A program made the translations under genes and the position numbers. The notes beneath the pieces were generated by a model that saw nothing but the letters and a program-made list of their open reading frames with translations, was not told the origin of the DNA and made no database searches. Positions 5,919-64,000 of a DNA stretch of 64,000 nucleotides are shown here, one piece after another (the first letter of the stretch is position 1; each line of letters opens with the position of its first letter). The DNA is from a virus (Duplodnaviria; Heunggongvirae; Uroviricota; Caudoviricetes), in IMG/VR virus record IMGVR_UViG_2529292922_000010; one strand, 5' to 3'.

Positions 5919-6212
5919 TTAAGGTTCAGACCAGTTATCTTCAATAGCAATGCTTAATCTTTGTAGCCATTCTGCTAATTTCAGCATTGCTTCTCTTTCG
6001 CTTAAACCACGAGGAAAATCATCAAGTGAAATTGTTGGCTTGAATCCCCCGTAATTATCCATTTCAACTGTCAGATTTTGTTCCAGCACGGTATTTCTTA
6101 CGCGGCTATTGTGCCGGAGCAAATATACTGAACGTGATTTATTGGTTTTGTGGTCTAGCTTATATTCGGTAAGTATCATCTGGCTTTTGCCATGACTATT
6201 ACCTCTCCACAT
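5919..6212 (-). CDS. Hypothetical protein, 97 aa
   Basis: ATG at 6212 has a GAGG RBS; the track ORF start at 6308 has none. Confidence 0.45.
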   Translation of the reverse strand: MWRGNSHGKSQMILTEYKLDHKTNKSRSVYLLRHNSRVRNTVLEQNLTVEMDNYGGFKPTISLDDFPRGLSEREAMLKLAEWLQRLSIAIEDNWSEP

Positions 6213-6219
6213 ACTTACC

Positions 6220-6342
6220 TCACTTAATAAAACAACTCCATGCGTAGTTGATGATTTTTTCCCACGTAATATAAATCTGCACTCCGGCAGTAAAACCAAA
6301 GCCAACAATTGCTGAAAAAATCAAAACATTTACTTTTGACAT
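6220..6342 (-). CDS. Small single-pass membrane peptide, 40 aa
   Basis: MSKVNVLIFSAIVGFGFTAGVQIYITWEKIINYAWSCFIK; absent from ORF track because under 60 aa. Confidence 0.35.
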   Translation of the reverse strand: MSKVNVLIFSAIVGFGFTAGVQIYITWEKIINYAWSCFIK

Positions 6343-6390
6343 TATAAATTTTCTCTCGGTGTCGTAGGTGATAGCACCATAATTGATAAT

Positions 6391-6642
6391 TTAGTGAGTT
6401 AGCAGTTCCATTTTTTGGATGATTTCCGCATGAGCATCATCGTTATCAACACTTAACTCGTTTAATGCCTCTCGCACTACATCAACTTCTTCTGGTTGGA
6501 AGAAGTCATCTCGGTAGTCACCAAATAGAACCGAAACAAGCCTGCCACCAGCAACATCAAGATTGGCGCTAACAGGTGGCTCTTTACCATCCTCAAATTC
6601 GACTACAAAAGTTATTTTTCCCATCGTTACCACCAGCGACAA
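6391..6642 (-). CDS. Acidic hypothetical protein, 83 aa
   Basis: ORF with coding-like composition; no motif. Confidence 0.45.
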   Translation of the reverse strand: MSLVVTMGKITFVVEFEDGKEPPVSANLDVAGGRLVSVLFGDYRDDFFQPEEVDVVREALNELSVDNDDAHAEIIQKMELLTH

Positions 6643-6706
6643 ATTGAATACAAACCCAGTGCTGCCGCCATCACAATTCCTACCGTGGTGAATGCTTCAG
6701 GCCAGC

Positions 6707-7915
6707 TCATTGATTCACCTCCTGCGGCGGTTCTGGTAGCGGCATCCAGTGTGACGGTTTCCACGACGCACCAGGAATTATCCACCCATCATTAGCGTCA
6801 GGATGCCCCGGGATGTAAGTAGCCCATTTCATTCGCCAGTCACCTTTCCTGTCAAACTCCACGGCAACAAGAACGGCTGTTTTGGTATTCGGCATTCGCT
6901 CACTACAGCTTATCCAACCATCCGGAGTTACCGGAGAATTGCCATTTACCAAGTCAGCTCGAACATATAGCGTGTCATCATGGTGCTGATTGTGGCTGCA
7001 CCACGTTAATTCGCTTAACTCGCCATCTTCTGGCCATACTCCAGCTGTTTGCAGCCAGATATGGGCTGGCGCATCCTGGCAAGGTGTATTAACTGGAAAC
7101 TTGTAAGTTTGGCTTACAGGTTGGCTACCCTGAAGCATGGCAGCGTGGCAGGCATACTCAACGCCCTTAACTGCATCTGCGCAGTAGTTATAGCGATTGC
7201 ATTCCACTAATTTCCGTTTGAGTTTTTCAATTGCCTGCGCGACATCAGCCTGTATTACAGGAACTGGCGGAACGGCTGTTTGCTCTCGAACGTCATTAGT
7301 CGCTATCGGTTCTGCTGCCAACTGACTGGCATATTTGTTAATGGTAACGATAAGCTCTTGCTCAGCCTCATCCAGACAATCACCGATACCTCGCCTGTCA
7401 CCGTCAAAATCATCGAAATCAGCACGAATCTTGGCAACCTTCTGGATTGCGGACAACACCTCACTAGGAATTACCGGATAGTTGGTTGACGTTTCCGCGA
7501 TTTCCCGAAAATTATTGGTTGACGAATTCTTGTTTTCCCGAAAGTTTCCGGACTGAAGCATGGCGGCGCGGCAGGCGTTCCAGCCATCAACATAATCAAA
7601 CGTATTGCTATCGTCTGGCTCGATTTCATCCGGCACTACCGGCTCTGGTTGGATAGTGACGTTGGCAAAGGCAGCACGCAAACCGGCCTTAATTTCCTCT
7701 ACTTCATCAGCGCCTAGCGATGAATCTGACAATGCGTGATGGAATGCGTAAGCCATGTCGTCGTTTACTGCAACCGGTTCTGCTTCCAGCGATGCCAGAG
7801 CAATTCGTGCCAGTTCTTCCGCTTCTTCTGCTGGCAGTACAACGTTGCTACCAGGTCCGTATGTTTCGCGCCACTGCTTGATTGTCAGCAGTCGCTCTTT
7901 GGTAATAGTGGTCAT
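6707..7915 (-). CDS. Prophage protein with C-terminal DUF551-like domain, 402 aa
   Basis: C-terminal ~70 aa (DGWISCSERMPNTKTAVLV...HWMPLPEPP) fits the DUF551 pattern. Confidence 0.55.
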   Translation of the reverse strand: MTTITKERLLTIKQWRETYGPGSNVVLPAEEAEELARIALASLEAEPVAVNDDMAYAFHHALSDSSLGADEVEEIKAGLRAAFANVTIQPEPVVPDEIEPDDSNTFDYVDGWNACRAAMLQSGNFRENKNSSTNNFREIAETSTNYPVIPSEVLSAIQKVAKIRADFDDFDGDRRGIGDCLDEAEQELIVTINKYASQLAAEPIATNDVREQTAVPPVPVIQADVAQAIEKLKRKLVECNRYNYCADAVKGVEYACHAAMLQGSQPVSQTYKFPVNTPCQDAPAHIWLQTAGVWPEDGELSELTWCSHNQHHDDTLYVRADLVNGNSPVTPDGWISCSERMPNTKTAVLVAVEFDRKGDWRMKWATYIPGHPDANDGWIIPGASWKPSHWMPLPEPPQEVNQ

Positions 7916-8427
7916 GCCGCGTTTCCTTCTTTCTTATTAACAATTACACCGTCATATATTTCATTAAGGTGCCCTCTCAACTCCATGCGCCTTAATGCAG
8001 ATAACATGTAATCGCATTCAACCTGCTTATTTCCAGTAAATGGCTTATCGTCAGGATTACCCCAACAGCAATTACCCTTGGGCCACCCATGTACTTTCCG
8101 TACTCTTCCGTTAACAACGTGAAGTAATCCCCAGCCAGGTGGTAAATCCTCAATTGAAATAATTCCAGGCTCACTAATAAAGAATCGCCAGTCGCCCATG
8201 CCAAGTGAGGGATTTTTACGGAAACGCTTTTTTCTATCTGCCAACAAGTCAGCACGAGAACACTTCGCCTCTATCAGGCATGATGCTGAATTTCTGAATC
8301 CCATAGCATCTGGCTGTTCTCCGGTACTGGTTACAGCTATAAAGCGGTCATGAAAACAAACCTTGAACCCGTTGCGCTTAAGGAACTTGTACGCAATTTG
8401 ACAGAGTTCGCGGTGTGTTAACGCCAT
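7912..8427 (-). CDS. Putative PD-(D/E)xK-fold nuclease-like protein, 171 aa
   Basis: ATG 8427 with AAAGGAG RBS; D(PDAMG)...IEAK motif. Confidence 0.45.
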   Translation of the reverse strand: MALTHRELCQIAYKFLKRNGFKVCFHDRFIAVTSTGEQPDAMGFRNSASCLIEAKCSRADLLADRKKRFRKNPSLGMGDWRFFISEPGIISIEDLPPGWGLLHVVNGRVRKVHGWPKGNCCWGNPDDKPFTGNKQVECDYMLSALRRMELRGHLNEIYDGVIVNKKEGNAA

Positions 8428-8428
8428 A

Positions 8429-8617
8429 TCACTCTCCTTTAGTGCGCAAATGGTTTTTCCAGCGGTTTTGCGCCGCGCTGGGCTTTTTGCAAAAACCACA
8501 ATCCATCATCCCGTAATATTTCATCAACCCCATCCGTCGGTTGCTGAGTCTCACCCACTGCCAGACGCCAGGAGCGTTTCTACGAACTAACAGAATCTTT
8601 GCTTTACGGTTTTTCAT
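8429..8617 (-). CDS. Small basic protein, 62 aa
   Basis: AGGAG RBS; stop abuts the next start; weak. Confidence 0.3.
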   Translation of the reverse strand: MKNRKAKILLVRRNAPGVWQWVRLSNRRMGLMKYYGMMDCGFCKKPSAAQNRWKNHLRTKGE

Positions 8618-8768
8618 CGCTTTGCTCTCCTGCGTCTCTTTGCTGCTCGTCGTGCCGCTGCAATACCGGTATGGCGGCGCTTTGGTGCCGGGATGATGTT
8701 CTTTGCAATTAGCGCAGAAGCCCAAAAACGAGTCGGATACGGTAACAAGCCGATACATGCCACACGCA

Positions 8769-9416
8769 TTACTTACCTCCTTTGATGCGAATGCCAGCGG
8801 CGCGCTCGGCTTCACTTTGTTCCCAAAACCACTTGTGAAGCGCCATAAGCTTTTCGTCAATCGGTGCATATTTGCGATTAAAGTAGGCCTGAGCATCTTT
8901 CTCAGATTCGTCCGGTAATTCGCCAGGGCCAAACAGTGTGTTATAAATCCATGCTAGTCCGCTCTTAGCGTCGCCAGTTGCCTGCCATTCGATAATGGCA
9001 GCCTGCATGACCAGAATGTTTTTCCCGATTAATAGGTCCAGTTCTTTGTACCGGTTGCGGATGTATGCATTCTCGCTTTGTAATTTTGCGTTGCGCTTTT
9101 CTGAGGCTTCAAGTAACGCCTGCTTATCGCGTAGAGCTTCTTCCAGTTCAGCAACATGGCATTCACTATCAATAAGGTTGTTCTCTGCTGCTTCAAGCTC
9201 AACACGCAGCTTCCCAACCGTAAGCGCAATCTCCTCGTTCTCCTGGTCGCGGCGTTTGATGTATTGCTGGTTTCTTTCCTGTTCATCCAGCAGTTCCAGC
9301 ACAATCGATGGTGTTACCAGCTCATGGAAAAGGTCCGCGTCAAATCCCCAGTCGTCATGCATTGCCTGCTCTGCCGCCTCACGCAGTGCCTGATAGTCAA
9401 TTGTCATTCTCGCCAT
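8769..9416 (-). CDS. Ead/Ea22-like coiled-coil protein, 215 aa
   Basis: Coiled-coil-rich ORF with the pattern of lambdoid Ea22-like proteins. Confidence 0.5.
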   Translation of the reverse strand: MARMTIDYQALREAAEQAMHDDWGFDADLFHELVTPSIVLELLDEQERNQQYIKRRDQENEEIALTVGKLRVELEAAENNLIDSECHVAELEEALRDKQALLEASEKRNAKLQSENAYIRNRYKELDLLIGKNILVMQAAIIEWQATGDAKSGLAWIYNTLFGPGELPDESEKDAQAYFNRKYAPIDEKLMALHKWFWEQSEAERAAGIRIKGGK

Positions 9417-10072
9417 CCTTCACAGTTGTAATCACTACAGCCTTCAAAATCATATGGGCTGTACTGCCAGGTTATTTTTCCGCAATGCGGACAATTCCAA
9501 CGCACCTTCCCGCTTCGCGACTTCTTTCTTCTGTTCTGCTCTTTCAACCAGTCAGGCATGACCAAACCTGCGCCCTGAACCATTGTTCTGCGGTTAAAGT
9601 TATTGATATTGAACGTCCGGCGCTTTGCTGCATCAGCAATGGAAAATGGCAACCAAACTATTCCTGGTTCGTTTTTGTTGACGACGCTAAAGATGGTCGC
9701 TTTACTGAAGTCATCTGTTGGCAATCCACCGTGTTGAAGCCAGTAAACATCGTTGCCGTTCCAGCTACCTTTTTTGTAGGCCACATACTCAGTGCAATCT
9801 GACTCAATCAGGCTTTCTGTAGGGATGTACTGGCAATCAACGTGCCACACAGCCATTGCATCCACACTATCGGCACAAACAGGCTGATCGATATCTCGCC
9901 CACAATTCCAGGCTTTTTGGGCTTCTTCCAGCGTGTAAATATGAGCGCGATCGATATCAGAACTGTAACCATTGCCGTTATGGCAATGGAATGAGGCGTT
10001 ATTACCCACAGTTTCACGCAAGCACATCATGTAAAAACGGTTACTCACTGGTTGCCCCCTGAATACGCTCAA
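9404..10072 (-). CDS. Hypothetical protein with Cys-rich C-terminus, 222 aa
   Basis: CPHCGK...CSDYNC at C-terminus. Confidence 0.5.
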   Translation of the reverse strand: MSVFRGQPVSNRFYMMCLRETVGNNASFHCHNGNGYSSDIDRAHIYTLEEAQKAWNCGRDIDQPVCADSVDAMAVWHVDCQYIPTESLIESDCTEYVAYKKGSWNGNDVYWLQHGGLPTDDFSKATIFSVVNKNEPGIVWLPFSIADAAKRRTFNINNFNRRTMVQGAGLVMPDWLKEQNRRKKSRSGKVRWNCPHCGKITWQYSPYDFEGCSDYNCEGWRE

Positions 10073-57469: not shown

Positions 57470-59326
57470 ATGAATGACGTTACAGTTGTTACATCGGTTA
57501 CTTACCCATCACCCGAGTCGTTGGCTCTGGTGGCTGATGTGCAATACCACGAACCATATCTGTCAGCCGCTCTAAACCGAAAATTCAGGGGAATTGTTGA
57601 CCCGGGATTTTATGCTGGTTTCTTGCCTAAGCCTGGCGGTGGGATGAACCTGTTAATCACCTCAGTGGATGGAGATAAAACCGCTGGCGCGGCGTCAGTG
57701 GATATTGGTGAATTCTACCAGGTAACTATTCAGCATCGTAAGGATATCTCTCTTGCACTTAACGCAGGCAAGAAATATGCAATTGTGCTGAAGGGAAGAT
57801 ACCTTCTTGGAGAAGATACCTATCAGGTTAATACCGCGTCACATATTCATGCAGCTGAATTTGTTGCCAGAACCTATACCGATTCATATCAGTTAGGTGA
57901 TGGGGAACTGCTGGTTTGTACGGTGAATATCCCTGCTGGCGTATCTACCATTACTCAAGAGATGATTGATACATCCGAGCGTATCAACCGCACGATCGGC
58001 ATTGATATTTCAGACTCTGTAACCAGTACCAGAAGTGATGTTGCTGCGAGTTCGCTGGCAGTTAAAAAAGCCTACGATCTGGCGAAAAGCAAGTATACGG
58101 CGCAGGATGCAACCACGACACAAAAAGGGATAGTTCAGCTCAGTAGCGACACCAACAGCACTTCTGAAACATTAGCTGCAACTCCAAAAGCGGTTAAAGC
58201 TGCATACGATCTAGCAGCCGGAAAGGCACCATCCAGTCATACACATCCCTGGAATCAGATCACTGGTGTGCCAACAGCTTCATTGACAGCGAAAGGCATC
58301 ACTCAGCTCAGTAGTGCCACTAACAGTACGTCCGAAGTGCTGGCCGCCACACCGAAAGCTGTCAAGGCTGCATATGATTTGGCTAACGGGAAGTATACAG
58401 CCCAGGATGCAACCACGACACAAAAAGGGATAGTTCAGCTCAGTAGCGACACCAACAGCACTTCTGAAACATTAGCTGCAACTCCAAAAGCGGTTAAAGC
58501 TGCATACGATCTAGCAGCCGGAAAGGCACCATCCAGTCATACACATCCCTGGAATCAGATCACTGGTGTGCCAACAGCTTCATTGACAGCGAAAGGCATC
58601 ACTCAGCTCAGTAGTGCCACTAACAGCACGTCTGAAGTGCTGGCCGCCACACCGAAAGCTGTCAAGGCTGCATATGATTTGGCTAATGGAAAGCAAGCGG
58701 CAGACGCTACGCTCACTGCTCTAGCGGCACTAGCTACAGCAGCAGATAAACTCCCTTATTTCACAGGTGTTGATCGTGCCGCGTTAACTGCATTGACAAG
58801 TGTTGGACGCGCCATTCTTGGTAAGACCAGTATTCAGAGCGTTCTTGATTACCTTGGTTTAGGGGAAGGCTCGGCGCTGCCCGTTGGTGTACCTGTTCCA
58901 TGGCCCTCAGCCACACCGCCAACGGGGTGGCTGAAATGCAATGGTGCAGCATTTTCTTCTGAAAAGTACCCAAATCTGGCAAAGGTTTACCCTACTAATA
59001 AATTGCCGGATCTACGGGGCGAATTTATTCGCGGCTGGGATGACGGGCGGGGGATTGACTCTGGCCGTAATTTATTATCTGCACAGAATGATGCAATTCA
59101 GAATATTGTTGGTTCTTTCGGGCGTACTCAGCTTTTTAGAGATGTACTTAGTTCAGGGCCATTTAGTCAACATGGTCAAGTATTATCTACAGGCCTAAAG
59201 GAAACGGAAATTATTGAGGGTTATGGCTCTTATAACTGGACATTCGACGCCTCTCGCTCAGTTCGTACAGCATCTGAAACCCGCCCCCGTAATATTGCAT
59301 TTAATTACATCGTAAGGGCGGCATAA
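57470..59326 (+). CDS. Tail fibre protein (constant shaft + currently expressed cassette 1)
   Basis: 618 aa from ATG 57470; repeated GIxQLSS.TNSTSE.LAATPKAVKAAYDLA motifs; receptor-binding cassette 1 occupies 58853-59326. Confidence 0.8.
   Translation: MNDVTVVTSVTYPSPESLALVADVQYHEPYLSAALNRKFRGIVDPGFYAGFLPKPGGGMNLLITSVDGDKTAGAASVDIGEFYQVTIQHRKDISLALNAGKKYAIVLKGRYLLGEDTYQVNTASHIHAAEFVARTYTDSYQLGDGELLVCTVNIPAGVSTITQEMIDTSERINRTIGIDISDSVTSTRSDVAASSLAVKKAYDLAKSKYTAQDATTTQKGIVQLSSDTNSTSETLAATPKAVKAAYDLAAGKAPSSHTHPWNQITGVPTASLTAKGITQLSSATNSTSEVLAATPKAVKAAYDLANGKYTAQDATTTQKGIVQLSSDTNSTSETLAATPKAVKAAYDLAAGKAPSSHTHPWNQITGVPTASLTAKGITQLSSATNSTSEVLAATPKAVKAAYDLANGKQAADATLTALAALATAADKLPYFTGVDRAALTALTSVGRAILGKTSIQSVLDYLGLGEGSALPVGVPVPWPSATPPTGWLKCNGAAFSSEKYPNLAKVYPTNKLPDLRGEFIRGWDDGRGIDSGRNLLSAQNDAIQNIVGSFGRTQLFRDVLSSGPFSQHGQVLSTGLKETEIIEGYGSYNWTFDASRSVRTASETRPRNIAFNYIVRAA
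58091..58690 (+). repeat. Near-perfect tandem duplication (2 x 300 bp) in fibre shaft
   Basis: 58091-58390 and 58391-58690 nearly identical; encodes duplicated 100-aa shaft module. Confidence 0.8.
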
Positions 59327-59813
59327 AAACGTTGGTTTGGGGGAAGGCTCAGCATTGCCCGTTGGCGTGCCCGTTCCGTGGCCCTTAGAAACACCGCCAA
59401 CGGGGTGGCTGAAATGTAACGGAGCAGCATTTTCTTCTGAAATGTATCCCAAACTGGCAAAGGCCTACCCCACCAATAAATTACCGGATTTACGGGGAGA
59501 ATTTATTCGCGGCTGGGATGATGGGCGCGGGGTGGATGCGGGACGTGCTTTATTGAGCATTCAGACAGGAATGCTGGAAAAGCACCGACATATTGTTGTA
59601 GCCAATGATGGTTACGACACAAAAGATGAATGGGAGCTGGCGACAATTTTCAAAAAAACATACACACAAGGACGGGGGCTTGATGCCTCAAATACAGGAG
59701 GGAATTTGATTCCATCACCGACACTTCATTCTCGAGGGAGTATTGGTAATACTGGCGGGAGTGAAACCCGTCCACGAAATATCGCATTTAATTACATCGT
59801 AAGGGCGGCATAA
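59327..59813 (+). other. Silent tail-fibre C-terminal cassette 2 (intact frame)
   Basis: Begins with junction AAACGTTGGTTTGGGGGAAGG, ends ETRPRNIAFNYIVRAA-stop; 5' 200 bp identical in type to inverted cassette 9. Confidence 0.7.
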
Positions 59814-60290
59814 AAACGTTGGTTTAGGGGAAGGCTCGGCGCTGCCCGTTGGTGTACCTATTCCATGGCCCTCAGCCACACCGCCAACGGGGTGGCTGAA
59901 ATGTAACGGTGCAGCATTTTCTCTGAAAAGTACCCAAATCTGGCAAAGGTTTACCCCACTAATAAATTGCCGGATCTACGGGGCGAATTTATTCGCGGCT
60001 GGGATGACGGGCGGGGGATTGACTCTGGCCGTAATTTATTATCTGCACAGAATGATGCAATTCAGAATATTGTTGGTTCTTTCGGGCGTACTCAGCTTTT
60101 TAGAGATGTACTTAGTTCAGGGCCATTTAGTCAACATGGTCAAGTATTATCTACAGGCCTAAAGGAAACGGAAATTATTGAGGGTTATGGCTCTTATAAC
60201 TGGACATTCGACGCCTCTCGCTCAGTTCGTACAGCATCTGAAACCCGCCCCCGTAATATTGCATTTAATTACATCGTAAGGGCGGCATAA
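59814..60290 (+). pseudogene. Cassette 3, frameshifted near-copy of cassette 1
   Basis: 1-bp deletion (TTCTTCTG to TTCTCTG); variable region identical to cassette 1. Confidence 0.65.
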
Positions 60291-60764
60291 AAACGTTGGT
60301 TTGGGGGAAGGCTCAGCATTGCCTGTTGGCGTACCTGTTCCGTGGCCCTCAGCCACTCCGCCAACGGGGTGGCTGAAATGTAACGGAGCAGCATTTTCTT
60401 CTGAAAAGTACCCAAATCTGGCAAAGGCTTACCCTACTAATAAATTGCCGGATTTACGCGGTGAATTTATTCGTGGCTGGGATGACGGACGTGGTGTGGA
60501 TGCCGGGCGACAATTATTATCTTCACAGGGGGAGTGCAATAAGAAATATTGAGGGGTTCGCAGATGGCGGGATTGGCATGTCTTTTGATGCAATCAGAGG
60601 GCGTTTTTATGATGCAGGAACACGATCTGCGAGAATGCCGAATAACACAACTGATATAGGCAAACCGATGACCTTGGATTCGACGCCTCTCGTGTCGTGC
60701 CAACAGCTAATAGAAAACCGTCCTCGTAATATTGTCCTTTAATTATATCGTAAGGGCGGCATAA
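60291..60764 (+). pseudogene. Cassette 4, multiply frameshifted copy of the cassette-10 type
   Basis: Premature stop at 60550 and further indels; intact counterpart is the inverted cassette at 63825-64000. Confidence 0.65.
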
Positions 60765-61277
60765 AACGTTGGTTTAGGGGAAGGCTCGGCGCTGCCCGTT
60801 GGTGTACCTGTTCCATGGCCCTCAGCCACACCACCAACGGGGTGGCTGAAATGCAATGGTGCAGCATTTTCTTCTGAAAAGTACCCAAATCTGGCAAAGG
60901 TTTACCCAACGTTAAAATTACCTGATTTACGCGGTGAATTTATCCGTGGCTGGGATGATGGGCGCGGGGTGGATGCTGGCCGCGCTTTGCTTAATTGGCA
61001 GCCACACACAATTTTGGACCATGCACACTATATGGAATTATGGACAGGGGACGGACTCGCCGCAGGAAGTGCACGGGAAGGCGTAAATCCAGGAATACTA
61101 GCTACATACGGTGACGGGGGAATAGTTAAAACGGACGAACCCGGTCATAAGGTGCCTTCCTCACTACGAGCTATTAGCTCTCGTAGTGTTAAACGTTATG
61201 GTGAAATTAGTGGAAATGTAGGTACAGAAACTCGCCCTCGCAACGTTGCATTTAATTACATCGTAAGGGCGGCATAA
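60765..61277 (+). other. Silent tail-fibre C-terminal cassette 5 (intact frame)
   Basis: Open frame from junction to RPRNVAFNYIVRAA-stop. Confidence 0.65.
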
Positions 61278-61790
61278 AAACGTTGGTTTAGGGGAAGGCT
61301 CGGCGCTGCCGTTGGTGTGCCTGTTCCGTGGCCCTCCGCCACACCACCAACGGGGTGGCTGAAATGTAACGGAGCAGCATTTTCTTCTGAAAAGTACCCA
61401 AATCTGGCAAAGGTTTACCCAACGTTAAAATTACCTGATTTACGCGGTGAGTTTATCCGTGGTTGGGATGATTCGAGAGGGATTGATACAGGGCGTTCAT
61501 TGCTAAGTGGTCAGACTGCAACATTTATTCGTACAGCTTTGCAGGATTATTACGGTGTCGATCTGACTACTAATGTCAAAGTAGGTATCGCTTATGCTAC
61601 TGCTGATTCTGTTATAACTGTTGGAAACCCTGCTAATCCTAAAGCAGGAGATAATAGCGATTATGTTCCAGCATCATCAGATAACTCCATAACAGGCACT
61701 CAAAGGACGGCAGAGGATAATTTTACCGGGGCATGGATATCAATGCGCCCCCGCAACGTTGCTTTTAATTACATTGTAAGGGCCACATAA
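61278..61790 (+). pseudogene. Cassette 6, frameshift at 5' conserved region
   Basis: 1-bp deletion (GCTGCCCGTTGG to GCTGCCGTTGG); rest open. Confidence 0.6.
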
Positions 61791-62230
61791 AAACGTTGGT
61801 TTAGGGGAAGGCTCGGCGCTGCCCGTTGGTGTACCTGTTCCATGGCCCTCCGCCACACCACCAACGGGGTGGCTGAAATGTAACGGAGCAGCATTTTCTT
61901 CTGAAAAGTACCCAAATCTGGACAAAGGTTTACCCCACTAATAAATTGCCGGATCTACGGGGCGAATTTATTCGAGGTTGGGATGATGGACGAGGTGTGG
62001 ACAATGGGCGAGCATTATTAAGCAGCCAAGAGGCTACAAACTTTTCTCAGCGTGCCGGAAATATAGGCGATGGTGCAGGGCACGCAATTAATTTTCATGA
62101 TGGCATCGTCGGAAATCAGCCAGGATTTTCACGATTTAATTTCACCAGTAACTCTGTAGGTGATGGTATAAATTTTGTTGCTGTCAGGCCGCGAAATATC
62201 GCATTTAATTACATCGTAAGGGCGGCATAA
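61791..62230 (+). pseudogene. Cassette 7, frameshift in 5' conserved region
   Basis: 1-bp insertion (CTGGCAAAGG to CTGGACAAAGG). Confidence 0.6.
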
Positions 62231-62737
62231 AAACGTTGGTTTAGGGGAAGGCTCGGCGCTGCCCGTTGGTGTACCTATTCCATGGCCCTCAGCCACACCG
62301 CCAACGGGGTGGCTGAAATGCAATGGTGCAGCATTTTCTTCTGAAAAGTACCCAAATCTGGCAAAGGTTTACCCAACGTTAAAATTACCTGATTTACGCG
62401 GTGAGTTTATCCGTGGCTGGGATGATGGGCGAGGGATTGACTCTGGTCGCTCTATTTTAAGCGAGCAAGGATATGCAACGGAGGATCATGCTCACGGATT
62501 ACCGTCAAAATCAACCGTAGCAACTGACCGCTCAATTAATTTCTACTTTGACGAGGCATGGGCTACTAGTGGTAATACGGGAGTTATCAGATGGGGGAAC
62601 ACAAGCGATGCAGGATTGCCAGCCCCTAATTATGGAACTTTTAAAACATATAAACAGTCCGTAGCTAATTTAGGTACTGCTGGCTTAGAAACCCGCCCTC
62701 GTAATATTGCATTTAATTATATTGTGAGGGCGGATTA
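62231..62737 (+). other. Silent tail-fibre C-terminal cassette 8 (intact frame)
   Basis: Open frame from junction to RPRNIAFNYIVRAD-stop. Confidence 0.65.
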
Positions 62738-62743
62738 ATTATA

Positions 62744-63355
62744 TCAACTGGCTGTAGAAAGTTGTTTTTCAGGCCAGTTGAGAACTGGTGCCGTGGTTAA
62801 ATCCATCGCGTTCAGCTCGTCTATATAATCTAGCACGGAGTTAAGCTGCGTGGTTTCTGCCTGCGTCAACTTCCGTCCAGCCCGTAATTTCAACTGAATC
62901 AGACTAATGGAATCCATCGCAGTATCAATCAATGACTGACGTTTTGTTTCTGCTGCCTCTACAGCTGCACTATGTTGAGCCTCAGTATCAACCACCCATT
63001 TCTCTCCATCCCATTTGTCGTATGGTGTTAGCGGGGCGATAGTGGTTGTATTTTCCGGATAGTCACCCAACACCGTGATTTCTTCGGGATTCCCAGTGTC
63101 AATGCTATAGACAGTTTCGCCACGATGATCTGGCACATACTCCCATGAACTTAAATCCTCTGAACGGAGAATCGCATAACCTGCTTTATGTGAGCCTGGA
63201 GCATCCAAACAAGAATTTGCCGGAATACCAACGCCAACAGCAAGATATTCAGTTGATGCAGAAATATATTCCCGATTACCACCATCATAGTTATAAACGA
63301 TAATGTTTCCTGCCTGTATGGCTATAAGTTCGCTATTTAATATCGCATTATCCAT
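62744..63355 (-). CDS. Tail-fibre assembly (Tfa/U-type) chaperone
   Basis: 203 aa with Tfa-family pattern; start overlaps stop of inverted cassette 9; convergent with cassette 8. Confidence 0.7.
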   Translation of the reverse strand: MDNAILNSELIAIQAGNIIVYNYDGGNREYISASTEYLAVGVGIPANSCLDAPGSHKAGYAILRSEDLSSWEYVPDHRGETVYSIDTGNPEEITVLGDYPENTTTIAPLTPYDKWDGEKWVVDTEAQHSAAVEAAETKRQSLIDTAMDSISLIQLKLRAGRKLTQAETTQLNSVLDYIDELNAMDLTTAPVLNWPEKQLSTAS

Positions 63356-63824
63356 TATGCTGCTCTCACAATATAATTGAAGGCAATGTTACGTGGGCGG
63401 GTTTCATTCCCCCCAGATAACTCCGTTCTGTATTGACTGGTAAATTTACCATTAATCGCTCCTTGCCGGACGGCGTTATCTGTCGACAACAGACTATCCC
63501 CCCCTCTGTCATTTGGCACCAATACCGTGTTATCCCACGCGTCCCATGACCGAATATTATGATAATGACTTCCTGTTAACCACCCCTGTATGCTTAAGAT
63601 GACCCTTCCCGCATCCACACCTCGCCCATCATCCCAACCACGGATAAACTCACCGCGTAAATCCGGTAATTTATTGGTGGGGTAGGCCTTTGCCAGTTTG
63701 GGATACATTTCAGAAGAAAATGCTGCACCATTGCATTTTAGCCAGCCCGTTGGTGGTGTTTCTAAGGGCCACGGAACGGGCACACCAACAGGCAGTGCAG
63801 AGCCTTCCCCCAAACCAACGTTTT
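63355..63824 (-). other. Inverted tail-fibre C-terminal cassette 9 (intact)
   Basis: Minus-strand GEGSALPVGVPVPWPLETPP...ETRPRNIAFNYIVRAA; same junction motif at its 5' end. Confidence 0.7.
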
Positions 63825-64000
63825 TATGCCGCCCTTACGATATAATTAAAGGCAATGTTACGAGGACGGTTTTCATTAGCTGTTGGCACGACACGAGAGG
63901 CGTCGAATCCAAGGTCATCGGTTTTGCCTATATCAGTTGTGTTATTCGGCATTCTCGCAGATCGTGTTCCTGCATCATAAAAAGCCCCTCTGATTGCATC
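63825..64000 (-). other. Inverted cassette 10, 3' part only (window ends)
   Basis: Minus strand ends ...ENRPRNIAFNYIVRAA-stop; intact version of decayed cassette 4. Confidence 0.6.

Follow-up and report, generated by a model that had tools for sequence, protein, structure and literature searches.

The DNA-inversion switch that underlies the locus analysed here has been known since the work on p15B and P1 in the 1980s and 1990s, and the Min system of p15B, a plasmid with six crossover sites, was reportedly described by Sandmeier, Iida and Arber between 1990 and 1994. In P1 (Cin and its C-segment) and Mu (Gin and its G-segment), a pair of sites serves two alternative Sv+U sets. Min, which PMC5903667, PMC6906374 and PMC4134206 cite, belongs to a P1-related IncY plasmid prophage, with more than two 26-bp sites delimiting overlapping invertible segments, a constant 5' tail-fibre part with alternative 3' parts, and a Din-family serine invertase adjoining the array. 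An invertase 98.5% identical to Min is found in a related P1-like plasmid (PMC6906374). The chromosomal prophages of EC958 carry simple two-site switches, in which Phage_fiber_2 repeats are followed by an invertible Collar domain, and at such invertible tail-fibre loci assemblies have been described as differing by clustered indels and substitutions and as containing spurious duplications (PMC4134206).

We analysed a stretch of 64,000 nucleotides (the window), which is the last 64 kb of the draft contig AIEX01000036.1 (GCA_000249095.2): the window tail is byte-identical to the contig, and both end at the same position, inside the tenth cassette of the array. Cassettes were delimited as starting at the GGT of a crossover site and were read in the frame carried on from tail-fibre gene S (..L-G-L-G-E-G-S..), and the letters A to H denote cassette types. 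The array is composed as follows.

57470..59326, plus strand: tail-fibre gene S, an ORF of 618 aa, constant part to ~58853
58842..58867, plus strand: crossover site within S, TTCTTGATTACC TT GGTTTAGGGGAA, joining the constant part to the cassette
58856-59326, plus strand: expressed cassette C1, type A, the 3' part of S
59320..62249, plus strand: seven further direct 26-bp sites, GGCATAAAAACG TT GGTTT[A/G]GGGGAA
59320-45, 59807-32, 60284-309 and 60757-82, plus strand: the first four direct sites, the last being an A4 variant
61271-96, 61784-809 and 62224-49, plus strand: the last three direct sites
59334..59813, plus strand: silent cassette C2, type B, intact, with no differences from the sibling copy
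59821..60290, plus strand: silent cassette C3, second type A copy, T lost at ~59922 (TT undercall)
60298..60764, plus strand: silent cassette C4, second type C copy (as C10), multiply frameshifted
60771..61277, plus strand: silent cassette C5, type D, intact
61285..61790, plus strand: silent cassette C6, type E, one C short (CC for CCC) at 61309-10
61798..62230, plus strand: silent cassette C7, type F, surplus A at 61922
62238..62738, plus strand: silent cassette C8, type G, intact, the same as the sibling copy
62744..63355, minus strand: tail-fibre assembly gene tfa, 203 aa, Pfam Caudo_TAP, downstream of C9
63355..63816, minus strand: silent cassette C9 in inverted orientation, type H, intact, with its own site at 63805-63830
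63824..64000, minus strand: inverted cassette C10, type C, 3' end only, the visible 177 nt intact, truncated by the contig end

The window carries nine crossover sites, eight on the plus strand and one on the minus strand, all with a central TT and the right half GGTTT[A/G]GGGGAA, and a tenth is implied for C10 beyond them. The site within S aligns with P1 cixR and cixL and with the Phi2 sites of EC958: cixR reads TTATCCAATACC TT GGTTTAAGAGAA where the homologous site here reads TTCTTGATTACC TT GGTTTAGGGGAA, and the EC958 Phi2 site is nearly the same, TCCTCAATTACCTT GGTTTAGGAGAA (PMC4134206). The S frame passes through the site as D-Y-L-G-L-G-E-G-S, and C2, C5, C8 and C9 are open in this frame to a common end ...RPRNIAFNYIVRAA*. 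The S protein, which an identity look-up found encoded exactly by two NCBI contigs, has five Phage_fiber_2 matches and a Collar domain in Pfam, and a Collar domain was found in every intact cassette scanned, i.e. C2, C5, C8 and C9 as well as types C, E and I of a relative. Together with the relatives, the system comprises the domains Collar, Caudo_TAP, Resolvase and HTH_7.

The sites are thus 26 bp long with an identical central dinucleotide, are present in inverted orientation, and one lies inside the fibre ORF, as in Din-family systems; there are more than two of them, delimiting overlapping segments on a P1-related plasmid, as in Min, with which the locus also shares the constant 5' fibre part and the alternative 3' parts. 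It differs from p15B in its at least nine visible sites (up to 13–16 in relatives), in the single tfa visible here and in the invertase, which for this plasmid is not on the contig. With P1 it shares the backbone genes sit, bplA, 16, R and S and the position of the switch; unlike the paired sets of P1 and Mu, the array consists of many short Collar-domain cassettes that lack a chaperone gene of their own. The R64-type shufflon (Rci, sfx, pilV) follows the same logic, inversions shuffling the C-terminal ends of a surface-recognition protein, but relies on a recombinase of the tyrosine type and on sfx sites of 19 bp; the cix-like sites and the serine resolvase/invertase of the relatives rule out membership of the Rci family. 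Gene conversion from pseudogene cassettes, as in pilS or vls, and diversity-generating retroelements were likewise rejected, because every cassette has its own crossover site for site-specific recombination, which suffices.

No invertase gene was found in the 64-kb window, since the array is cut off by the contig end. A sibling plasmid (GCA_012777275.1) encodes an identical S protein followed by nine cassettes, all intact, and then a 190-aa invertase that is 74% identical to Cin; in this sibling and in five further relatives the array is directly followed by an intact gene for a Resolvase+HTH_7 protein of 190 aa, in the neighbouring position also held by the Min invertase, while it is truncated in a sixth. 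The relatives' invertase matches Gin structures (E=1e-92), and we infer that an active invertase is present in this particular plasmid too. Among plasmids with closely similar P1-type backbones (more than 99% identical in the one measured) the G/tfa/H module can lie either way round with respect to S, and the cassette at the expression site varies; as far as sequence comparison goes, both features are consistent with inversion. PGAP calls frameshifted or pseudogene cassettes in several related plasmids. Some relatives among the P1-like phage-plasmids carry resistance genes such as mcr-1.

We regard the locus as the silent-cassette part of what would be an ordinary switch of the Min/Cin type, working by multiple DNA inversion and placed at the 3' end of a P1-like gene S. 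A Din-family serine invertase would recombine pairs of inverted 26-bp sites, each embedded in the codons for L-G-L-G-E, so that a constant shaft of 462 aa could be joined in frame to any one of some ten Collar-domain tips of ~155 aa, and exchange of the tip would be expected to alter receptor specificity.

In the sequence as deposited, four cassettes, C3, C4, C6 and C7, are out of frame, as the sequence-only reading had pointed out. C3 is a near-identical copy of C1, from which it differs by four substitutions, all within the first 140 nt, and by a missing T (TTCTTCTG to TTCTCTG at ~59922), the core being that of C1. C4 is a copy of the type of inverted C10, with four indels and a swap relative to the sibling's type C: three insertions (+G at 60534, +A at 60712, +T at 60735), one deletion (-A at 60662-4) and the GC/CG swap at 60602-3. 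C6 has lost one C at 61309-10, 24 nt past the crossover site, but for which it equals the sibling's type E and the intact copies that five further loci carry; C7 has one extra A at 61922 and otherwise equals the sibling's type F and four intact copies spread over three further loci. Over about 2.8 kb the window cassettes differ from the sibling's by six or seven indels and 0–2 substitutions, and C2, C8 and C9 show no differences at all. Comparison with related phage-plasmids, which the sequence-only reading had proposed as a way to find intact versions, thus finds all of them in the sibling.

We conclude, with a probability of about 0.8, that the frameshifts are 454-type consensus errors in the draft of this already known kind of array and not decaying genes. 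Pyrosequencing base-calling errors would have persisted in the consensus when the draft was assembled around 2012, and only in the repeated, probably inverting array, where usable coverage per path would be low; we infer both the sequencing platform and the low or heterogeneous coverage. In a flow model with the order TACG, in which the lagging base of a homopolymer of at least 3 is read out only when its own nucleotide is flowed again, the incomplete-extension positions match four of four insertions and also the swap (chance 3.3% per insertion, about 1e-6 for four), and all four deletions are homopolymer undercalls, in TT, AAAA, CCC and AAAAA. Applied as a control to insertions in the broken cassettes of other assemblies, the same model fits 1 of 11. 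The TT to T undercall of C3 is a less typical 454 error. Residual nanopore or PacBio error was also considered; it suits other assemblies, such as E1624 p3 with one cassette carrying 13 single-base deletions, but not a draft from around 2012, and for this contig flow order is the better fit. The sequence-only reading had itself allowed that the indels might be errors in homopolymer or repeat context, and the lesions have this character.

The damage is confined to the array, which carries eight indels in 2.4 kb as against no coding indels in the backbone. The backbone has no indels relative to the sibling in 11.9 kb, and 24 kb of it match P1-like plasmids at 99.6% identity; over about 44 kb aligned with NZ_CP128965, gaps occur at only four places and shift no frame, two being intergenic poly-A length differences, the third three clustered 1-nt insertions (net +3) that lie shortly beyond the nearest long ORF, and the fourth a compensating +1/-1 pair within the S repeats. 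Broken cassettes make up 4/9 in the window and 9/118 across 20 related arrays (Fisher p=0.006). They are absent from 71 cassettes on short IMG/VR draft contigs but amount to 9 of 52 in complete circular plasmid records (p=3e-4), where we assume the former to be short-read and the latter long-read based. Seven of eight lesions fall in conserved blocks, which alone is not significant (p ~0.07).

Most of the lesion alleles are private to this contig. Those of C3 (deletion), C4 (+G and +T) and C7 (+A) were not found in 5,426 genomes of E. coli or in 72,556 plasmids; the C3 and C6 deletions and the C7 insertion were not found in IMG/VR, where a wild-type control returned 32 copies, nor was the C7 insertion found in the GTDB representative genomes. 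In the searches of the E. coli genomes and the plasmids the allele probes were joined by mismatching spacers, and no query 28-mer matched any fetched locus except the window. The truncated 77-aa product of C4 is seen only on this contig. Public assemblies otherwise lack the lesion alleles, save two homopolymer undercalls in other contexts. CCC to CC occurs at the same cassette offset in NZ_LR882977, in a different cassette type, and NZ_OP242274 holds a near-match to the CCC-deletion probe. The recurrence in NZ_LR882977 means that this one change may be either a genuine allele open to conversion or an error that recurs.

The lesion spectrum is moreover unlike that of neutral mutation: indels exceed substitutions, with a probability of 3e-6 to 2e-3 for at least seven indels among 9–19 events if 10% are indels, the alleles are mostly private, and C2 and C9 diverge only synonymously. 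The sequence-only reading had noted that they share their first ~200 bp; their first 71 aa are identical, while the DNA differs at 20/213 nt, all synonymous and none non-synonymous, and the shared start is a common block type rather than the product of recent exchange. These substitutions indicate that silent cassettes are under purifying rather than relaxed selection. The sequence-only interpretation holds in part: the recombining reservoir of alternative tail-fibre 3' ends is supported, cassette types being shared, reordered and flipped from one near-identical plasmid to another and duplicated in relatives, but decay under relaxed selection is not borne out, since the indels fit 454 errors, the sibling copies are intact and C2/C9 divergence is synonymous only. 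The lesions are truly in the deposited sequence and probably not in the plasmid itself, where the four cassettes are most likely intact.

Compatible with the 454-error explanation is a further reading, which we consider possible but less likely than not, that the duplicates C3 (of C1) and C4 (of C10) are themselves assembly artefacts from mixed inversion isomers. The contig would have been threaded through segments of different isomers, so that single-copy A and C appear twice, the second pass being built from few reads. Among the nine cassettes of the sibling, A and C are single, in an adjacency A|C that matches C3|C4 here; errors sit in the extra copies, C4 being the worst; the contig breaks inside the array; and artefactual duplications are cautioned against at invertible tail-fibre loci (PMC4134206). 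Yet C3 differs from C1 at four positions in the 5' block and so is not simply C1 read twice, and duplications (E-A-E-A, C-I-C, F twice) also occur in complete circular relatives, where they are probably real if those records rest on array-spanning long reads, as we assume.

It is unlikely, in our estimate, that the indels are real and very recent frameshifts in silent, partly redundant cassettes, tolerated under relaxed selection during a mainly plasmid life. Other P1-like plasmids are annotated with broken cassettes, and even with broken expressed cassettes and invertases, and real decay exists in the family, pGPEC128-620c having a truncated invertase and premature stops in its expressed cassette; C3 and C4 are redundant with intact twins, so that losing them costs nothing; and the clean backbone implies that the assembly is not generally poor. 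Against this stand the ratio of six or seven indels to 0–2 substitutions, which is far from any natural spectrum, the match of each of four non-adjacent +1 insertions to the 454 flow model, the privacy of most alleles to one draft contig, and the purifying selection seen on silent cassettes. We know of no natural mechanism that yields an X-run, then Y, then +X. Still less probable is the generalization that would follow from real indels, namely that expanded Min-type arrays (10–16 cassettes) of P1-like phage-plasmids lose cassettes by an indel-prone local process, for which error-prone repair synthesis during recombination of diverged repeats, in an element kept as a plasmid, is a candidate. 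That the frameshifts are functional, as programmed OFF states or slippage-prone phase-variation tracts giving fibre-less or decoy particles, is highly improbable, as nothing specific speaks for it beyond the few relatives with broken cassettes at the expression site, the lesions lie outside long or conserved repeat tracts at positions that, one CCC run excepted, are not conserved among plasmids, and the sibling lacks them.

The 454-error reading carries a caution, that invertible repeated tail-fibre arrays are hot spots of consensus error and possibly of artefactual duplications too. In EC958 such artefacts were traced with reads (PMC4134206), whereas here they are deduced from the consensus; "frameshifted" or "pseudogene" calls in such arrays, when made without reads, should not count as biology. 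The plasmid probably has a repertoire of 8–9 intact alternative receptor-binding tips, and the size of this repertoire matters for predicting or engineering the host range of P1-like phage-plasmids; if the indels were real, a sizeable part of it would be cryptic or dead.

The tail-fibre gene S lies downstream of the P1-type genes sit, bplA, 16 and R, and its 3' part belongs to an array of 430–510 bp units that starts at 58856. Each unit is opened by a 26-bp site, present eight times on the plus strand of the window and once on the minus strand, which reads GGCATAAAAACG TT GGTTT[A/G]GGGGAA in the silent units and TTCTTGATTACC TT GGTTTAGGGGAA within S; the units share the 3' end ...RPRNIAFNYIVRAA-stop. 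The cassettes are named C1 (expressed, within S), C2–C8 (silent, plus strand) and C9 and C10 (inverted), the last being interrupted by the window end, and their cores are assigned to types: A (C1, C3), B (C2), C (C4, C10), D (C5), E (C6), F (C7), G (C8) and H (C9).

57470–59326, plus strand: tail-fibre gene S, 618 aa, with five Phage_fiber_2 repeats and a C-terminal Collar domain (Pfam)
62744–63355, after the minus-strand C9: tail-fibre assembly gene tfa (Caudo_TAP)

Among its Phage_fiber_2 repeats, the constant part of S contains two tandem copies of a 300-bp segment (58070–58669; 96% identical). Since the gene ranges from about 1.65 to 2.5 kb in relatives, shaft length seems to vary with repeat number. 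Both PGAP and the collection's gene caller give silent cassettes gene models of their own, named "phage tail protein" and starting at internal TTG/GTG codons (59337–63813 in the window, and in relatives); these ORFs are promoterless gene fragments, not genes.

The crossover sites align with P1 cixL/cixR, with a common central TT and an ACC/ACG-TT-GGTTTA core, and near-identical 26-bp sites are listed in PMC4134206 for the invertible tail-fibre genes of E. coli EC958 prophages. Backbone identity to ~95-kb E. coli P1-like plasmids reaches 99.6%. In all seven relatives examined, a serine-invertase gene directly follows the array, ahead of holin and darA; the enzyme is an intact 190-aa Resolvase+HTH_7 protein in six and truncated in pGPEC128-620c, and it matches Gin structures (E=1e-92). 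No invertase gene is present in the window, where the contig stops inside the array; that of a sibling plasmid (the contig of GCA_012777275.1 with an identical S protein) shares 74% identity with P1 Cin. The locus is a Min-type multiple-inversion system, a host-range switch of a kind reportedly first described in plasmid p15B, and corresponds to the Cin/C-segment switch of P1 extended to many sites. An Rci shufflon is ruled out because neither the recombinase class (serine in the relatives) nor the sites fit.

The cassettes were translated in the frame continuing S, and lesions were placed by alignment to the nearest intact copies. C2, C5, C8 and C9 are open, and eight indels fall within the 2.4-kb stretch holding the broken cassettes.

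Lesions in the silent array
C3, about 59922: −T; frame lost after 33 codons
C4, 60534: +G
C4, 60602–3: GGGGC to GGGCG swap
C4, 60662–4: −A
C4, 60712: +A
C4, 60735: +T; four frame changes in C4
C4/C5 junction, 60763–6: A5 to A4
C6, 61309–10: CCC to CC; frame lost after 8 codons
C7, 61922: +A; frame lost after 41 codons

Taken as deposited, the sequence bears out the description given by the sequence-only reading: C3 is a copy of C1 with a 1-bp deletion, identical in the core and with four substitutions, all within the first 140 nt; C4 copies the C10 type with several frameshifts; and C6 and C7 carry single-base indels. Broken cassettes are enriched here, at four of nine versus 9 of 118 in 20 other arrays (p=0.006). 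The left half-site ahead of C5 (site 60757–60782), CGGCATAAAACG TT, is one A short, with four rather than five; as this variant also occurs in about seven other plasmids, it may, unlike the other indels, be a real site polymorphism.

The indels are confined to the array, which counts against their being biology. Over about 44 kb of backbone, comparison with NZ_CP128965 gives more than 400 substitutions and gaps at four places only: two intergenic poly-A length differences, at 11470 and 37837 (A8 versus A7), three clustered 1-nt insertions (net +3) immediately beyond the closest long ORF, and a compensating +1/−1 pair within the S repeats. None of them shifts a reading frame, and the 11.9 kb of backbone compared with the sibling hold no gap. 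The A8/A7 tracts, the sole single-base homopolymer-length differences in this backbone, could reflect either real polymorphism or additional miscalling of homopolymers.

The lesion alleles are also private to this contig, the main exception being CCC to CC. With validated probes, every 28-mer of which was forced to span the lesion, the C3, C4 +G, C4 +T and C7 alleles were absent from 5,426 complete E. coli genomes and 72,556 plasmids. Exact-pattern scans of IMG/VR found none of the C3, C6 and C7 alleles (32 copies of the wild-type control), the C7 allele was absent among GTDB representatives, and a search across 153 billion gene positions placed the truncated 77-aa C4 product on this contig alone. 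Once the indels are disregarded, intact cassettes elsewhere match exactly: copies in five other loci for C6, and four copies in three other loci for C7. The CCC to CC change recurs in NZ_LR882977 (9001–9431 of locus L103), at the same offset of 24 nt past the crossover site and in a cassette of another type that occupies the expression site, so that S is split; a probe near-match lies in NZ_OP242274.1 (48427–48476). Either this motif is prone to a recurrent miscall, or conversion between 5' blocks has spread the allele. An AAAA to AAA change is shared with the type-C cassette of E1624 p3 (NZ_JBXYCD010000004.1, 8672–9123). That cassette has 13 single-base deletions and two substitutions relative to intact copies, with S marked as frameshifted; the array of this recent assembly clearly carries an unpolished consensus. 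Broken cassettes appear to track the kind of assembly, with 0 of 71 in short IMG/VR draft contigs versus 9 of 52 in complete circular plasmids (p=3e-4), if these records are grouped, as we assume, into short-read drafts and long-read assemblies.

The exact S protein was found on two contigs, the 94.5-kb sibling and AIEX01000036.1 (GCA_000249095.2; 68,145 nt), which we take to be a member of a 2012 draft-genome collection. The last 16.5 kb of the latter are byte-identical to the window tail, so the window is the end of a draft WGS contig broken inside C10. The sibling, arranged S-A, C, B, E, I, D, G, tfa, H, F, invertase, supplies the intact versions sought in related genomes: all nine of its cassettes are intact. 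C2, C8 and C9 show no difference from its copies, C6 is its type E minus one base, C7 its type F plus one base, and C4 its type C with four indels and the swap. Over about 2.8 kb, the two arrays differ by 6–7 indels and 0–2 substitutions (binomial tails for the indel excess, 3e-6 to 2e-3), a ratio that, to our knowledge, no natural mutation spectrum produces.

When extension of a homopolymer is incomplete in pyrosequencing with the flow order T-A-C-G, its base is called once more when that nucleotide next flows, by which time the main template population has incorporated one or two further runs. Insertions predicted from incomplete extension were computed on both strands of intact reference cassettes, giving 141 of 4,314 possible non-adjacent insertions (3.3%). 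Each of the four insertions seen belongs to this set (chance about 1e-6).

Insertions both predicted and observed (inserted base in brackets)
GGGGG-A-[G]
[A]-G-AAAA, reverse-strand reading
[T]-CC-TTT, reverse-strand reading
[A]-C-AAA, reverse-strand reading

The GGGGC to GGG-C-G swap is predicted as well, and all four deletions are undercalls in homopolymers of 2–5. The test is specific, since only 1 of 11 insertions in broken cassettes of other assemblies fits. We therefore infer, with a probability of about 0.8, that the indels are errors of a flow-chemistry platform, so that decay under relaxed selection is probably not what they record. They match the outcome that the sequence-only reading itself gave as refuting its view of decay, namely errors in homopolymer or repeat context. 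Real, recent frameshifts are an improbable explanation; we know of no natural mechanism that places an extra base one run away from a homopolymer of that base.

Restriction of such errors to the array would be expected if an active invertase made the culture a mixture of inversion isomers. All cassettes are 82–97% alike over the 5' 200 nt and the 3' 50 nt, and some are duplicated, so that few reads would back any one path and short reads could not correct it. Clusters of indels and substitutions are documented at invertible tail-fibre loci, with a warning of artefactual duplications (PMC4134206). It is accordingly conceivable, though rather unlikely, that the extra copies C3 and C4 reflect a chimeric assembly path through two isomers: the sibling holds types A and C once each, side by side, but four 5'-block positions distinguish C3 from C1, and duplications also occur in complete circular relatives, where they are probably real if, as assumed, those records rest on array-spanning long reads.

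Related arrays draw 5 to 13–16 cassettes from a common catalogue (29 core types among 178 intact cassettes counted), in varying order and orientation and with different types at the expression site. One tfa serves the whole array, always after the type-H cassette and abutting the 3' end of type G. As this G/tfa/H module takes either orientation relative to S (window 62238–63816; related loci L082, L085, L102, L103 and L105), most cassettes would be expressed with tfa wrongly oriented for the late S operon. The largest array seen, in pPEC399_2 (5981–12750 of locus L084; 13–16 cassettes), has tandem two-cassette repeats (E-A-E-A, C-I-C), which point to growth through unequal crossing-over between conserved 5' blocks.

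The 5' part shared by C2 (59334–59546) and C9 (63604–63816) is borne out, with the first 71 aa identical. Between the blocks, 20 of 213 nt are changed, every change being synonymous (18 third-position, two first-position Leu), which indicates a common block type under purifying selection rather than recent exchange and is a strong sign of such selection on cassettes silent in the present arrangement. The switch type is already known, and nothing at the locus counts as new biology. Decay is found elsewhere in the family: pGPEC128-620c (locus L001; 5548–6045 and 10565–10894), with its truncated invertase and an expressed cassette carrying premature stops and a 9-nt deletion, has probably undergone a genuine loss of both switch and fibre.
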